From positions 1 through 39,898 of the IMG/VR virus record IMGVR_UViG_3300005663_000110: 39,898 nt of DNA, one strand, 5' to 3'. A model generated the notes under the pieces. The model searched no databases, was not told the DNA's origin, and worked only from the letters and a program-made list of their open reading frames with translations. Source of the DNA: a virus (lineage: Duplodnaviria; Caudoviricetes). Position 1 is the first letter of the stretch. Each line of letters starts with the position of its first letter. Made by a program: the position numbers and the translations under genes. Of this stretch, positions 9,861 through 19,780 are shown piece by piece.

Positions 9861-9889
9861 ATTATACCATAAACAAGGAGCAAAGTCAA
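9861..9889 (-). promoter_or_regulatory. sigma70-type promoter heading the packaging operon
   Basis: TTGACT (9889-9884), 17 nt spacer, TATAAT (9866-9861) with extended TG. Confidence 0.8.
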
Positions 9890-11376: not shown

Positions 11377-11646
11377 ATGAAACACAGAATGTATAGAGTA
11401 AGGGAACATCGGGGAGAACCAATGGATTATGACGTACTATCGTCTGAGATAACCGCCGTGGCTGCTAAGAATAGCTGTGTACGTGCTGGGGATTACCGGA
11501 ATACGTGGTGGGTTGATGTGCTGGAAGAGCTAGAACTGGATGGTACGCTGGATATAGGAGAAGTCGATACGATATGCTTAGAAGCAACAACACCGGATAA
11601 GGACACGTTCTATAACCAGCAGTACATAGAGGACGATCAATGTTAG
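11377..11646 (+). CDS. hypothetical acidic protein
   Basis: 89 aa, AAGGAG RBS. Confidence 0.65.
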   Translation: MKHRMYRVREHRGEPMDYDVLSSEITAVAAKNSCVRAGDYRNTWWVDVLEELELDGTLDIGEVDTICLEATTPDKDTFYNQQYIEDDQC

Positions 11647-12122
11647 TACAACAGATAGAATTGAGTAATGGCATGTTCACTACAGTTGACGCTGGAGATT
11701 TTAAATGGCTAAACCAATGGAAATGGTCATTTAATAAAGGATACGTAATAGGAGGCCATAGGCCAGAGGGTAAAAACTCTTCACCTGTATTAATGCACCG
11801 TGTTATAATGGATCCACCTAATGATAAATTTGTTGACCACACAAATCACGATACATTAGACAATAGGAGATGTAATTTAAGAGTATGTACTAAGGGGCAG
11901 AATCAGTTTAATAAGTTGCCACAAGGGGGAACTTCACGCTTTAAAGGGGTAAGCTGGAATGAGCAAACGAGTAAATACAAAGTACAAATACAGTTTCAGG
12001 ATAAAAAGTATTACCCAGGATATTTCATAAACGAGATAGAAGCAGCTATAACCTACGATTTATGGGCTATTAAACTATTTGGTGAGTTTGCTCACTTAAA
12101 TTTTCTAAACAAGGGCAGATAA
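11640..12122 (+). CDS. HNH endonuclease with C-terminal AP2 domain
   Basis: MHRVIM...VDHTNHDTLDNRRCNLR (HNH); SRFKGVSW...EAAITYD..AIKLFGEFAHLNF (AP2). Confidence 0.9.
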   Translation: MLVQQIELSNGMFTTVDAGDFKWLNQWKWSFNKGYVIGGHRPEGKNSSPVLMHRVIMDPPNDKFVDHTNHDTLDNRRCNLRVCTKGQNQFNKLPQGGTSRFKGVSWNEQTSKYKVQIQFQDKKYYPGYFINEIEAAITYDLWAIKLFGEFAHLNFLNKGR

Positions 12123-14343: not shown

Positions 14344-14583
14344 ATGACGATTAGAAAGAGACAGGTAAACAGGATAGTCGACGAGCTAAAAGAGATACGC
14401 AGAATATCAACTATGGATTCTGCTGATTTCAGTAACAGCACTGATAAACCTATGGACTTACCAAAAGAACGTAAGGGTGTTACTGCTTACGTAAAGCGGT
14501 TAACGAGATTATGGCGGTGGACATGGTTAACAGAACCACTTGACAGGGCCATTGACCAGTTAGAGCATGAATTGAACCGTTGA
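14344..14583 (+). CDS. hypothetical protein
   Basis: 79 aa, AAGGAG RBS. Confidence 0.65.
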   Translation: MTIRKRQVNRIVDELKEIRRISTMDSADFSNSTDKPMDLPKERKGVTAYVKRLTRLWRWTWLTEPLDRAIDQLEHELNR

Positions 14584-15068
14584 TGAACCTAATCGGAGCA
14601 ACCTGTGGTCGTCTGAAAGTAACTAGACGGGCAAATGTATATTCCAAAAGACGGAAATGCCCATACTGGGAATGCGTTTGCGGATGTGGTGAAACCAAGA
14701 TTATCCGAGGATCGAATATCACAGCCCGATCACAATTATCCTGCGGATGCCTAAAAGGGTACCACGATACGAAGCACGGTAAATCATACGCTGCCAGATC
14801 ATTGGCCCTGTATTTTCTGCGGGATCATATCGAATCGACGCTGGAGTTTACAGATTCGATCCACGCTGATCGGTTAAGTTTCGATGTTTGCGAATTTGCC
14901 GCTGGATTCCCGGGCACTAGCACTGTAGACTATCCCGATATTTATGACCTGATCGCAGTTATGGGGGTGTTCAATCAGGAATTGGCTGATATGCACCATC
15001 AACTGTACGGATTATATCTACCTAAAGATATGAATTTTGAAATATATGGATTGGAGTATAAAGTATGA
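14580..15068 (+). CDS. protein with homing-endonuclease-type N-terminal Cys domain, no HNH core seen
   Basis: 'LIGATCGRLKV...WECVCGCG...SCGCL...KHGKS'. Confidence 0.65.
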   Translation: MMNLIGATCGRLKVTRRANVYSKRRKCPYWECVCGCGETKIIRGSNITARSQLSCGCLKGYHDTKHGKSYAARSLALYFLRDHIESTLEFTDSIHADRLSFDVCEFAAGFPGTSTVDYPDIYDLIAVMGVFNQELADMHHQLYGLYLPKDMNFEIYGLEYKV

Positions 15069-15256
15069 GCTTATTAAACAAAAAGCACGTTCGGAACTAT
15101 ATATTAGAGCGGGTAAAGAAAACCCGGCCCGGTTTTAACTGCACCCGTGTATCACCCGATGCGTTAACTGCCATAGAATATAAACTTACTGCGATGATAA
15201 ACAAGATTGTTCACGCCCACCCGTCTAAAGGGCAAACTTTTCGTGATATATTATAA
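15065..15256 (+). CDS. putative minimal histone-fold protein
   Basis: 63 aa basic; helix1 - 'TRVS' loop - amphipathic helix2 'PDALTAIEYKLTAMINKIV' - 'GQTF' loop - truncated helix3; GGAG RBS. Confidence 0.6.
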   Translation: MSLLNKKHVRNYILERVKKTRPGFNCTRVSPDALTAIEYKLTAMINKIVHAHPSKGQTFRDIL

Positions 15257-17130: not shown

Positions 17131-17482
17131 CAAACAATCTCCATCCAGGCATCTTAACACAGACAGATTTAACTCCAGGCCATCACAGGTCAGGCATAGA
17201 GAAGCTGATCTGCGTCATACTTTAAAGAAACTTCTGTTGGCCCCGCTGGTAGCATTATATATGCTGTTCCACAGGAATAAGCCCACGCCGAAACTTGTAT
17301 CCCATCGGCTGGGTAAACAACGAAATCAGCCGTGTCCGTGTGGTAAGCATAAAACAGTAATAAAGCCCGTAGTTCGCCCAACGTTTGGCTATCTCAAGAG
17401 TGAGGTTACTATGGGGCCAGTAAGCGTACCTGTTAAGTATAAAAAATGCTGCTGGAATAGTGACTATGAGGTAGCTGTGTAA
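17123..17482 (+). CDS. membrane-associated protein with split SEC-C motif
   Basis: hydrophobic LLLAPLVALYMLF; RNQPCPCG...KYKKCC; GGAGG RBS. Confidence 0.65.
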   Translation: MTNKQSPSRHLNTDRFNSRPSQVRHREADLRHTLKKLLLAPLVALYMLFHRNKPTPKLVSHRLGKQRNQPCPCGKHKTVIKPVVRPTFGYLKSEVTMGPVSVPVKYKKCCWNSDYEVAV

Positions 17483-18012
17483 TGAACTGTGGCCTCGATA
17501 AATGCCCAGTAGAAAGTGTAACCCTGATTAAGCTAACCAAGGGTAAGTACACCATAATAGATACAGCCGACTGCTGGCTGTTCAAGTATAAGTGGAACGT
17601 CACAGGAGTAGGAAGGTATCTATATGCAGCCAGGGGCAACCTGCAAGATAATGGCAAGAGAAGGTTAGAACTTATGCACCGTAAGATCATGGATGCACCC
17701 AAGGGTATGGTAGTAGATCATATAAATCACAACACGCTTGATAATAGACGAGCCAATATGAGAGTGTGCACCAATAGTCAGAACAGTTGCAACAGCTTAC
17801 CCGTTGAAGGGTCGTCTAAGTATAAGGGTGTGCACTGGAGTGAGTATCAGGAAAGATGGGTAGCCCAGATAAAGTTAGATTACAAATACCACAACGTGGG
17901 AGTTTTCAAAGACGAAATTAAAGCAGCTGAGGCTTACGATGAGAAGGCCATTGAATTATTCGGAGAATTTGCGTATCTAAACTTTAGCAGGGAGAAATGT
18001 AATGTCAGATAA
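17482..18012 (+). CDS. HNH endonuclease with C-terminal AP2 domain
   Basis: MHRKIM...VVDHINHNTLDNRRANMR; SKYKGVHW...AAEAYDEKAIELFGEFAYLNF. Confidence 0.9.
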   Translation: MNCGLDKCPVESVTLIKLTKGKYTIIDTADCWLFKYKWNVTGVGRYLYAARGNLQDNGKRRLELMHRKIMDAPKGMVVDHINHNTLDNRRANMRVCTNSQNSCNSLPVEGSSKYKGVHWSEYQERWVAQIKLDYKYHNVGVFKDEIKAAEAYDEKAIELFGEFAYLNFSREKCNVR

Positions 18013-18454
18013 TAAAGGTGAGAATCCTAAAGAAGCGTGTGGATTAGCTAAGAATCCGCATTGCTGCGTATCACAGGCTGTGATGGCCGAGGTAGGACTC
18101 GGGATGTTCGAGGGTGCACGTAAGTATGGCCGGTATAATTACCGAGTAACGAAGATCACAGCATCTATATACTATGATGCTTGCCGTCGTCATTTGGATA
18201 TGTGGTGGGAAGGTGAGGACATCGACCCTGATAGTGGTGTGCACCACATCTCAAAGGCTATCGCGTGTCTTACAGTCCTACGTGATGGTCAGATTCAGGG
18301 TATGACTTACGATGATCGTCCACCGAAAACTCCACCCGAGTTTTGGGAGAATATAAAGAAGATCACGGGTGAGATTATAGCACGCCACCCGGAACCGAAG
18401 GAACCGTTTACGGAATTGAACAAGAAAGCAGAACAGGAGGCCAATAAAAAGTGA
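18002..18454 (+). CDS. DUF5664 / dATP-dGTP diphosphohydrolase N-terminal-like domain protein
   Basis: NPKEACG..K; GARKYGRYNYR; YYDACRRHL..WWEGEDIDPDSGVHH; DDRP. Confidence 0.85.
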   Translation: MSDNKGENPKEACGLAKNPHCCVSQAVMAEVGLGMFEGARKYGRYNYRVTKITASIYYDACRRHLDMWWEGEDIDPDSGVHHISKAIACLTVLRDGQIQGMTYDDRPPKTPPEFWENIKKITGEIIARHPEPKEPFTELNKKAEQEANKK

Positions 18455-18888
18455 ATAAAATAACAGCATATATGTCTCATCACATCCGAGGCCCGGAAGG
18501 TGACAAGGCCACGATGGAAACTATCGAGGCTAACAACAAGGCTGCCCGATTAATGGGAGCTAAGATCAGAGAACTAATACCAGAACTTGACCTGTACGTG
18601 CCGGGAGATCAGGACCAAGTAATTATGTATCTGTGTAAGAAGGGGTATGTAACTACCGAGCAGATACTCGAAGCCGACTGTGTTATCATAAGCCAGTGTA
18701 AGTTTATGATAGTTTTTAATAGATATGATAGTATCAGCGGTGGTATGCAGACCGAAGTGGATCACTGCATGTATAATTGTATCCCGTTTATCTATATCAC
18801 TGATCTTAACGAGCGTGAGCTTGCAGGTCTTAGAGATTTAGTTAAACATTTTCAGGAGATTGCCAATGTCACTATCACATCAGACTAA
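18451..18888 (+). CDS. nucleoside 2-deoxyribosyltransferase/N-glycosidase-like protein
   Basis: AYMSH at N-terminus, 'D...ISQCKFMIVF', 'SGGMQTE', 'IPFI'. Confidence 0.7.
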   Translation: MNKITAYMSHHIRGPEGDKATMETIEANNKAARLMGAKIRELIPELDLYVPGDQDQVIMYLCKKGYVTTEQILEADCVIISQCKFMIVFNRYDSISGGMQTEVDHCMYNCIPFIYITDLNERELAGLRDLVKHFQEIANVTITSD

Positions 18889-19780
18889 AAATAATATACT
18901 ACGATCCCTACGGAGTGGGCTCAACCACCAGCAGACCTGTGAATTGGTTGGCATTTCCAGGAATACTGTCGTAAAGTTGCTGAAAACTCGTAAGCGTGTA
19001 ATGTCAATCACTGACATACATGGTGGTCACGTTGCAGGGCTGACTCCACCCGATTATCAGAAGTATAACATTGGCATGAAGAAGTTTGAGGACCAGCAAC
19101 ACGAGGCATGGGCTTGGTACGATAGAGTGTGCAAGATATTGAAGCCCAATGTACTCTTCGTTACTGGTGACATGACAGAAGGCAAAGGTAAACGATCTGG
19201 TGGATCAGAGCTTATCACTACTCTGTGGGAAAAGCAGTGTGACATAGCTTACCAGGTTATAAAAACTACCGGTGCCAAAGAGATCGTGGCTGTCTACGGT
19301 ACGCCATGTCATACCGGCGATGAGGATGACTATGAGAACTTCATAATTGGCAGACTCAAATCAGATGGCATTCGATGCAGGATAAGTGGACATGAATTTC
19401 CACGTGTGCATCAGATACAGTTCGATCTTAAACATAAGATCGGGAGTTCGGCGATACCACACGGCAGGGCTACTGCTATAATGAAATCAAAGCTGTGGAA
19501 TATCATGTGGGCCGAAAGAAATCAACAACCTGATAGTGACGTGCTGCTTCGTGGTCACGTGCATTATTTCAATTACGTGGGGAACTCACGGTGGCTTGGC
19601 ATCGTCCAGCCGGCACTTCAAGGCTGGGGTAGCAAGTATGGAATACGACAATGTGAGGGCATCGTAGACTTTGGACTGATCTGGTTTGACGTGTATGACG
19701 GTGACACACTCGATACTTTGCAGTGGCATTATGAGATACCACAGCTTGAATCTCACAAGGTTAAGATTGCACAGCTATAA
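18866..19780 (+). CDS. calcineurin-like metallophosphoesterase with N-terminal HTH
   Basis: HTH 'GLNHQQTCELVGISRNTV'; DIHGGH, GDMTEG, GTPCH, H, RGHVH; ATG 18866 after AGGAG. Confidence 0.8.
   Translation: MSLSHQTKNNILRSLRSGLNHQQTCELVGISRNTVVKLLKTRKRVMSITDIHGGHVAGLTPPDYQKYNIGMKKFEDQQHEAWAWYDRVCKILKPNVLFVTGDMTEGKGKRSGGSELITTLWEKQCDIAYQVIKTTGAKEIVAVYGTPCHTGDEDDYENFIIGRLKSDGIRCRISGHEFPRVHQIQFDLKHKIGSSAIPHGRATAIMKSKLWNIMWAERNQQPDSDVLLRGHVHYFNYVGNSRWLGIVQPALQGWGSKYGIRQCEGIVDFGLIWFDVYDGDTLDTLQWHYEIPQLESHKVKIAQL

Follow-up and report, generated by a model that had tools for sequence, protein, structure and literature searches.

Phage histone-fold proteins have already been catalogued computationally (PMC11390915; PMC13681535). 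Schwab 2024 described the alpha3 histones together with a class of "phage histones" that have a tetramerisation helix at the C-terminus, with at least seven accessions so labelled in the accessible part of that paper (PMC11390915), and Liu 2025 reported 539 Caudoviricetes histone-fold proteins in seven clusters (PMC13681535; preprint 10.1101/2024.12.06.627149). In the available parts of these papers, the bench tests published concern archaeal and bacterial alpha3 histones and eukaryote-like viral triplets, and small alpha3-type phage proteins are not among the proteins tested (PMC11390915; PMC13681535).

Among the solved alpha3 histones, HTkC of Thermococcus kodakarensis is described as contacting DNA through K7, S8, K9, K11, R22, V23, R51, K52, T53 and Y55, all of them backbone or ribose contacts, with R22 as the minor-groove arginine (bioRxiv 10.64898/2025.12.06.692711). 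The HTkC tetramer needs R45, and the R45A variant is a dimer resembling the DNA-bending HBb of Bdellovibrio bacteriovorus (bioRxiv 10.64898/2025.12.06.692711). The two chains of a histone-fold dimer meet with loop 1 of each touching loop 2 of its partner, as described for HLp of Leptospira perolatii, and the DUF1931 pseudo-dimers covered in the same source illustrate that histone folds need not bind DNA (bioRxiv 10.1101/2025.05.08.652872).

The gene and its surroundings

The window analysed here is a stretch of 39,898 nt, positions 1 to 39,898 of the IMG/VR record IMGVR_UViG_3300005663_000110 (Duplodnaviria; Caudoviricetes), a linear virus record estimated to be 81% complete in which the gene is present once. 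Its 63-codon open reading frame encodes P0001, a protein of 63 aa with a net charge of +8 and a pI of 10.3; the reverse frame over the same interval contains several stops. An earlier note on this DNA had described a basic 63-aa protein carrying TRVSPDAL, SKGQTF and RDIL, and the plus-strand translation bears this out, placing the three motifs at residues 27-34, 54-59 and 60-63. The ATG of the gene overlaps the TGA of the upstream ORF (14580-15068), suggesting translational coupling, and a promoter scan found no strong site of the gene's own, only one 9-of-12 match with its end at 15064; no RNA source is listed for the locus. When the gene was compared with 12 homologous genes, pS was 0.69-1.03 and pN was 0.25-0.42 (the 13 genes were picked from 55 loci), and pN values below pS indicate purifying selection; identity by codon position over the 13 genes was 0.58/0.68/0.35. 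With a ribosome-binding site, the stop overlap, purifying selection and 554 relatives, this reading frame is a real gene. It is present in one copy in all five further virus records and is single-copy in all 54 of the 55 stretches that gave a match.

Table. Features of the P0001 gene and its product, with positions in the window
Feature	Position	Strand	Basis and remarks
Shine-Dalgarno-like GGAG	15053..15056	+	8 nt before the ATG; read from the sequence, function presumed
ATGA overlap of the gene's ATG with the upstream TGA	15065-15068	+	upstream ORF, 14580-15068
Putative minimal histone-fold gene (P0001)	15065..15256	+	translation, homolog family, selection
Predicted helix alpha1, residues 6-20	15080..15124	+	model; K6 and R10 correspond to HTkC DNA contacts K7 and K11
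Loop 1, residues 21-30	15125..15154	+	family-specific R21-P-G-aromatic insert, then R28-V29-S30, corresponding to HTkC R22-V23-S24
Predicted helix alpha2, residues 31-51 (21 residues)	15155..15217	+	model; conserved hydrophobic face; A51 corresponds to HTkC R45
Loop 2, residues 52-58	15218..15238	+	signature H-P-S-x-G-K/Q-T; without the clamp arginine
5-residue tail in the place of alpha3	15239..15253	+	non-helical in the model; poorly conserved

The minus strand of the window carries the terminase, the portal and a capsid-like gene, and the plus strand carries, along with the P0001 gene, genes for a DNA polymerase, a primase, a Sak4-like annealing protein, an exonuclease and a dATP/dGTP diphosphohydrolase. 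A replication, recombination, nucleotide-metabolism or sigma-factor gene was found on the same strand as the family gene in 12 of 19 related loci, in a scan of 132 of the 146 picked ORFs from which one duplicate locus and four overlapping ORFs had been dropped. Moreover, the family gene was opposite in strand to the terminase or portal in four of five informative cases, this window included. The position with replication genes favours action in the replication phase, and a virion-structural or core role was rejected as first choice on gene position. No neighbour was shared family-wide, as no other ORF of the window matched more than six of the 54 loci compared. Sigma-factor genes lie near the family gene in loci L016, L039 and L055, which points to bacterial hosts, and a DNA polymerase gene lies directly upstream of it in L046.

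Several other features of these genomes were observed. Over about 10.5 kb, contig L002 and the window are 99.8-99.9% identical, but in L002 a further 274 bp containing a 68-aa ORF (L002:4354-4627) separate the upstream ORF from the histone gene precisely at their junction (window 15062-15064); the difference reads as the clean gain or loss of one gene at the ATGA overlap. Downstream of the P0001 gene, 15290-15430 (+) holds a ribosome-binding-like site, a 19-codon ORF, a TGA and 28 more open codons in the same frame, all identical in L002, which possibly represent tiny genes or a decayed ORF. The plus-strand arm contains two HNH endonuclease genes and one ORF with the N-terminal part only of an HNH-associated family (11640-12122, 17482-18012 and 14580-15068, respectively). 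A near-consensus sigma-70 promoter (11 of 12, with TG) at 9861-9889 on the minus strand sits in the gap between the diverging gene arms, facing the packaging and structural genes. At 18002-19780 (+), the dATP/dGTP diphosphohydrolase gene (PF18909) is followed by two ORFs; genes of this region recur near the histone gene in L003, L006, L039, L042 and L052, where the scanned neighbours include matches to nucleoside deoxyribosyltransferase and metallophosphoesterase. The region is possibly a base-modification or nucleotide-pool module, and no PurZ-like match was found in the ORFs scanned. Mom-like DNA modification genes lie within about 1 kb of the histone-like gene at L005:6755-7498 (-) and L011:3778-4452 (-).

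Homolog family and fold

A single-sequence search for homologs of P0001 found two proteins, and a profile of three sequences kept 40 of 58 candidates. Against 50%-cluster representatives, the same three-sequence profile detected 554 proteins at E<=1e-3 and 103 at 1e-10; 150 of these representatives were listed. Scans of Pfam, PHROGs and NCBIfam with P0001 alone identified no significant family, nor did a scan of PDB sequences, and member-by-member scans of 40 and of 150 homologs gave scattered weak matches only. PF00808 was not among the best 25 of 47 Pfam families for the 150 members, and no PF00808 match was found in this genome. In the ESM Atlas, the nearest clusters were unnamed and viral (0.94-0.95; where a few of their members had a record, 76-95% of these were viral), and the nearest named clusters were PF00808 at 0.84-0.85, which is a lead only. 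A tblastn search of 50,697 GenBank phages gave two chance-level matches (E 5-10), hence no close relative in a cultured phage at single-sequence sensitivity, and a scan of bacterial and archaeal genomes gave seven relatives. The family looks large, is missed by Pfam, PHROGs and NCBIfam, and did not turn up in the published sets of phage histones examined. Three longer proteins (P0188, P0151 and P0183) carry the histone-like domain at one end; they may be gene-calling read-throughs and not true fusions, as P0188 runs into sequence resembling a secreted phage protein.

Conservation was counted over 174 single-domain members, that is, 187 proteins minus 13 doublets. Near-invariant positions were V/I29 (174 of 174), T58 (173), K/R10 (172) and G56 (169), followed by R21 (163), H52 (162), P53 (161), S30 (158) and R28 (149); a basic residue was found at position 6 in 136 members and at position 57 in 123. 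The net charge of the core was +4 or more in 156 of the 174. The tail after T58 had six residues or fewer in 152 members and three or fewer in 46, with a longest tail of 25 residues.

The profile of 150 homologs, searched against 177,635 PDB sequences, matched HTkC best (E 3.2e-5), followed by HLp (E 0.06), with the other three of its five matches at E>4; a profile of 40 sequences had already matched HTkC at E 0.0058. The AlphaFold monomer model of P0001 has the two helices listed in the Table, with a mean pLDDT of 90, and no helix after residue 51, where the tail has a pLDDT of 67-81. Compared with 48,161 chains, the model gave nine top rows that were all histone folds (Z 5.2-5.9, a level that common helical arrangements can also reach, as they can the Z of 8.7 reported below for a doublet model). 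The best match was HTkC (Z 5.9, rmsd 2.2 A, 56 aligned), with HLp and HBb both at Z 5.4. The Foldseek check proposed in the earlier note placed histones on top, with HTkC, HBb and HLp at ranks 1, 2 and 4, but returned E-values of 0.7 or worse for the monomer, and neither the monomer nor the doublet model matched anything in PDB and BFVD at E<=0.001. The 21-residue alpha2 is in register with that of HTkC and is ended earlier by H52-P53; as modelled, it is shorter than in nucleosomal histones. The tail has five residues compared with six in HTkC, and a single alpha3 turn is possible.

The histone fold with shortened alpha2 and vestigial alpha3 that the earlier note had proposed is therefore backed by the sequence profile, by the structure searches and by the model and conservation of the doublets described below, and there is little doubt that P0001 has histone-fold ancestry. 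Other parts of that proposal fared less well. The terminal RDIL had been read as an alpha3 stub; an aspartate occurs there in 17 of 174 homologs and no helix is modelled, and the reading of RDIL as a conserved alpha3 with the clamp aspartate was rejected, since the position is variable and D is rare. Loop 2 is not of the RxTxxxxD clamp type, with the clamp arginine replaced by G56, two residues before the threonine, in nearly all homologs and D at T+5 in 2 of 174. Finally, HMfB and Bd0055 had been taken as reference relatives, and the closest solved relative is HTkC.

Tandem doublets, DNA contacts and mode of action

Fourteen natural tandem doublets were identified, 13 among the listed representatives and one in L016. 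These phage proteins have 119-161 aa and consist of two copies of the minimal unit, most of them with a single intact loop 1/loop 2 end. R28 was kept in all 14 first halves and in three of the 14 second halves; conversely, G56 and T58 were kept together in none of the first halves and in all 14 second halves. The survival of the first-half loop 1 together with the second-half loop 2, while the other pair decays, fits the cross-pairing of a handshake and does so independently of any structural model. Nine of the 14 doublets group together (support 91/93), so these counts are not independent, and the loss of the first-half loop 2 could reflect its use as a linker; in the L016 doublet, the degenerate second half aligns only in part. 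In a weakly resolved tree that combined the doublet halves with 75 single-domain proteins (18 of its 100 branches starred, bootstrap unsettled), the halves of P0048 came out as sisters (100/93) and those of P0044 probably so (96/70), suggesting that doublets arose more than once. Two doublets lie in phage-like surroundings, the L016 doublet (L016:5923-6306) between exonuclease and DNA polymerase genes and another, at L055:972-1340, near a sigma-factor gene.

The model of doublet P0048, a homolog of P0001, reached a pTM of 0.83; it rests on 13 sequences, and solved histone doublets may have guided AlphaFold. The strand or bridge residues that the model shows at 30-31, 60-61, 103-104 and 133-134 correspond to both loops 1 and both loops 2, and their positions suggest the register of loop pairing; the monomer model of P0001 lacks them. 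The top 10 matches in a structural search with P0048 were histone doublets, fused pairs or tandem histone-fold chains, headed by HMk (1F1E; Z 8.7, rmsd 3.0 A over 122 aligned residues); non-histones began at Z 4.8. A profile of the doublets against PDB sequences again had HTkC first, at E 0.38. Judging from the doublet model and from conservation, P0001 likely forms an antiparallel handshake homodimer, in which the chains would pair through crossed alpha2 helices with loop 1 placed against the partner's loop 2.

In the alignment, HTkC K7, S8, K9, K11, R22 and V23 correspond to P0001 K6, K7, H8, R10, R28 and V29. HTkC R51 has no counterpart, and K52 and T53 correspond to Q57 and T58 by motif position, as the printed alignment stops at HTkC G50. 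The equivalents of K7, K11, R22, V23, K52 and T53 are the positions 6, 10, 28, 29, 57 and 58 counted above, and from this conservation and the charge, it is likely that P0001 binds DNA. The basic residues that HBb has on alpha1 are also present at positions 6 and 10 (as judged from residue counts). The R-D clamp of the RKTxxxD type is absent, with G at T-2 as noted above and D at T+4 in 3 of 174 homologs. Also absent is the pair of a face-to-face tetramer, an arginine and an asparagine four residues on: P0001 has A51 and K55, position 51 is basic in 51 of 174 homologs (R, the commonest residue, in 42), and at position 55 asparagine ranks below the four most frequent residues. With A51 at the R45 position and both clamp partners lost, a homodimer that binds the DNA backbone and bends DNA is favoured. 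The earlier note had also suggested that the protein might bridge phage DNA; the short tails and the lack of a C-terminal tetramerisation helix speak against this, and bridging through such a helix was rejected, P0001 ending five residues after T58. A search for longer family proteins gave one match among 7,991 scored.

By analogy with the HTkC-DNA structure, the N-termini of alpha1 (K6 and R10) would form the central DNA contact, and each loop 1/loop 2 pair (R28 and V29 with K/Q57 and T58) would grip the minor groove, with the rigid H-P-S-x-G turn standing in for the missing R-D clamp and positioning loop 2. The dimer would then bend DNA without sequence preference, like HBb and dimeric HTkC R45A. 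Presumably made alongside the products of the replication and nucleotide-metabolism genes, it would act on intracellular phage DNA as a phage nucleoid-associated protein with a role in compaction, and shielding or transcription tuning would be side effects. Taken as a whole, a minimal histone-fold homodimer that bends DNA non-specifically and serves as a nucleoid-associated protein in the replication phase is a fairly probable reading of P0001; on the narrower question of action, a non-specific bender is moderately favoured over a wrapper or a site-specific factor.

Ribbon-helix-helix proteins open with a beta-strand, which is followed by helix A, and join their helices through a tight turn. 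If P0001 were a small basic two-helix protein of this or another non-histone kind, and its likeness to histones due to chance, the lack of a significant Foldseek E-value would be accounted for, as would the weak Pfam matches to ParD in 3 of 150 members (best E 0.0027) and to RHH_9 in 1 of 40 (E 0.13). However, P0001 has five residues before helix 1 and a 10-residue loop between the helices, and neither model contains a strand of three or more residues, which makes the ribbon-helix-helix fold, given in the earlier note as an example of a refuting structure, unlikely. The HTkC profile match with its motifs in register, the doublet geometry and the cross-loop conservation are likewise at odds with a non-histone origin, which we regard as highly improbable; ribbon-helix-helix proteins were absent from the best 50 of 1,763 structural rows at Z>=2, an absence that carries no weight as a test. 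It is similarly very unlikely that P0001 is a decoy that heterodimerises with a host alpha3 histone and disturbs host chromatin. Homology to the alpha3 histones of bacteria such as Leptospira and Bdellovibrio fits such a role, and the lost oligomerisation residues would give a chain terminator, but the DNA-binding face is conserved, and doublets, which occupy their own dimer surface and should not be tolerated by a decoy, seem to have arisen more than once.

P0001 could also assemble into tetramers or larger oligomers and wrap DNA, its dimers meeting at a new interface made of H52 and the end of alpha2. Nucleosomal histones have a histidine of their four-helix bundle at this place, and a wrapping mode would agree with the conservation of H52, with arginine as the commonest residue at position 51, and with HTkC and HLp, the closest solved relatives, being wrapping tetramers. 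It is nevertheless improbable: P0001 itself has alanine at the position whose loss makes HTkC a dimer, the face-to-face asparagine is outside the four most frequent residues at its position, the tail is variable and often too short for alpha3 contacts, and the first-half H52 is kept in only 4 of 14 doublets. Eukaryotic histone-fold pairs such as NF-YB/NF-YC, NC2 and the TAFs act as specific factors, and P0001 could share the fold and dimer proposed here and still act as a regulator specific to a site or partner, with a single loop 1/loop 2 end, carrying the H-P-S-x-G-x-T and R-P-G-W motifs, that reads a promoter or an origin or binds RNA polymerase, a sigma factor or the replisome. The near-invariant, family-specific R21, H52, P53 and G56, the doublets with one intact end only, and the sigma-factor and DNA polymerase genes found close by in four loci would all suit such a regulator. 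Two points weaken the case for the non-specific bender: R21, aromatic 24, H52 and P53 are conserved without an HTkC counterpart, and a single intact loop 1/loop 2 end suffices in doublets. Both would suit a specific partner as well as they suit general bending. On the other hand, the conserved contacts are the backbone-binding ones of HTkC, the positive charge is uniformly high, and the family has no common neighbour and hence no fixed partner, so a specific regulator is considered unlikely. The more particular idea that a phage histone fold was cut down to a two-helix, clamp-free unit and became a one-ended selective regulator through its R-V-S and H-P-S-x-G-x-T end is likewise doubtful; if true, the prokaryotic world would have its own equivalent of NF-YB/NF-YC or NC2-type factors, and the doublets, evolved several times, would fix the asymmetry.

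The loss of the R-D clamp and of most or all of alpha3, features counted as hallmarks of the structure, with the DNA-contact residues kept makes the family a natural test of how little a histone fold requires to bind and bend DNA, and the repeated asymmetric doublets are a ready-made experiment on which binding end matters. If P0001 coats replicating phage DNA, it would add a chromatin-like layer to phage-host conflict.

Comparison with described histones

HTkC (PDB 9F2C; PMC11390915; bioRxiv 10.64898/2025.12.06.692711), described as a face-to-face histone, is the best match to P0001 in both sequence and structure. The two proteins share a short alpha2, and the DNA contacts K7, K11, R22, V23 and T53 are kept; HTkC likewise lacks the clamp aspartate and itself has E49 at the face-to-face asparagine position. 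Unlike HTkC, P0001 is phage-encoded, is about seven residues longer in alpha1 and loop 1, and has an alpha2 ended by the H-P break, a loop 2 that is one residue shorter and lacks R51, an alanine in place of R45 and no modelled alpha3. HLp (PDB 9QT0), a bacterial face-to-face histone, also shares the short alpha2 and is the second family-profile match. Its dimer is described with loop 1/loop 2 cross contacts, and its tetramer forms via R49, N53 and R55, with an R55-D62 clamp and a one-turn alpha3, none of which is kept in P0001 (bioRxiv 10.1101/2025.05.08.652872). HBb (Bd0055; 8CMP, 9F0E and 8FVX) matches in structure (Z 5.3-5.4, rmsd 2.1-2.2 A, with 11-17% of the structurally aligned residues identical) and was absent from the family-profile matches to PDB sequences at E<=10. 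Like P0001, it lacks the face-to-face tetramer residues, and its dimer is reported to bend DNA (PMC11390915); unlike P0001, it keeps RKTxxxD and the R-D clamp. The phage doublet was best matched by the doublets HMk (Methanopyrus kandleri, 1F1E) and DUF1931 (1WWI and 1R4V) and by those of Marseilleviridae (Z 6.5-8.7).

Among phage proteins, the Schwab phage histones of the A0A2E7QIQ9 type and the VTTHFP of Liu 2025 are described as tailed-phage proteins of the alpha3 type without RxTxxxD, as is P0001 (PMC11390915; PMC13681535). However, their C-terminal helix, for which tetramerisation and DNA bridging are predicted, has no room in most of the P0001 family, where 152 of 174 members end within six residues of T58. 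In the VTTHFP rows compared, alpha1 is short and the KT loop has no H-P (PMC13681535). VHHHFP, VFFHFP and BBVHFP are, like P0001, small Caudoviricetes histone folds without a C-terminal tetramerisation helix according to the available part of the same paper, and the VHHHFP rows compared have an N-terminal pattern before alpha1 similar to that of the P0001 family. VHHHFP has a conserved K47-R48 loop 2, a truncated alpha3 and a 7-residue loop, in place of which P0001 has H-P-S-x-G-K/Q-T and its 5-residue tail, as judged by eye and by string search. The three published Liu alignments available contain neither HPS nor HPT (PMC13681535). None of the 20 IMG/VR contigs L002-L021 that carry the P0001 family is in the available Liu table of 539 proteins, and 19 of the 20 are absent from the table of 966 histones; the family could still fall in other Liu clusters (VFFHFP or BBVHFP) via other contigs. 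In the literature searched, in which subscription journals were thinly covered, no paper on the P0001 family was found. P0001 would work like a dimeric alpha3 histone, but it misses traits that define the face-to-face histones, the bacterial-dimer histones, VHHHFP and the Schwab phage histones/VTTHFP, so the P0001 family is filed here as a new variant allied to the alpha3 histones and not as a member of any of these groups.
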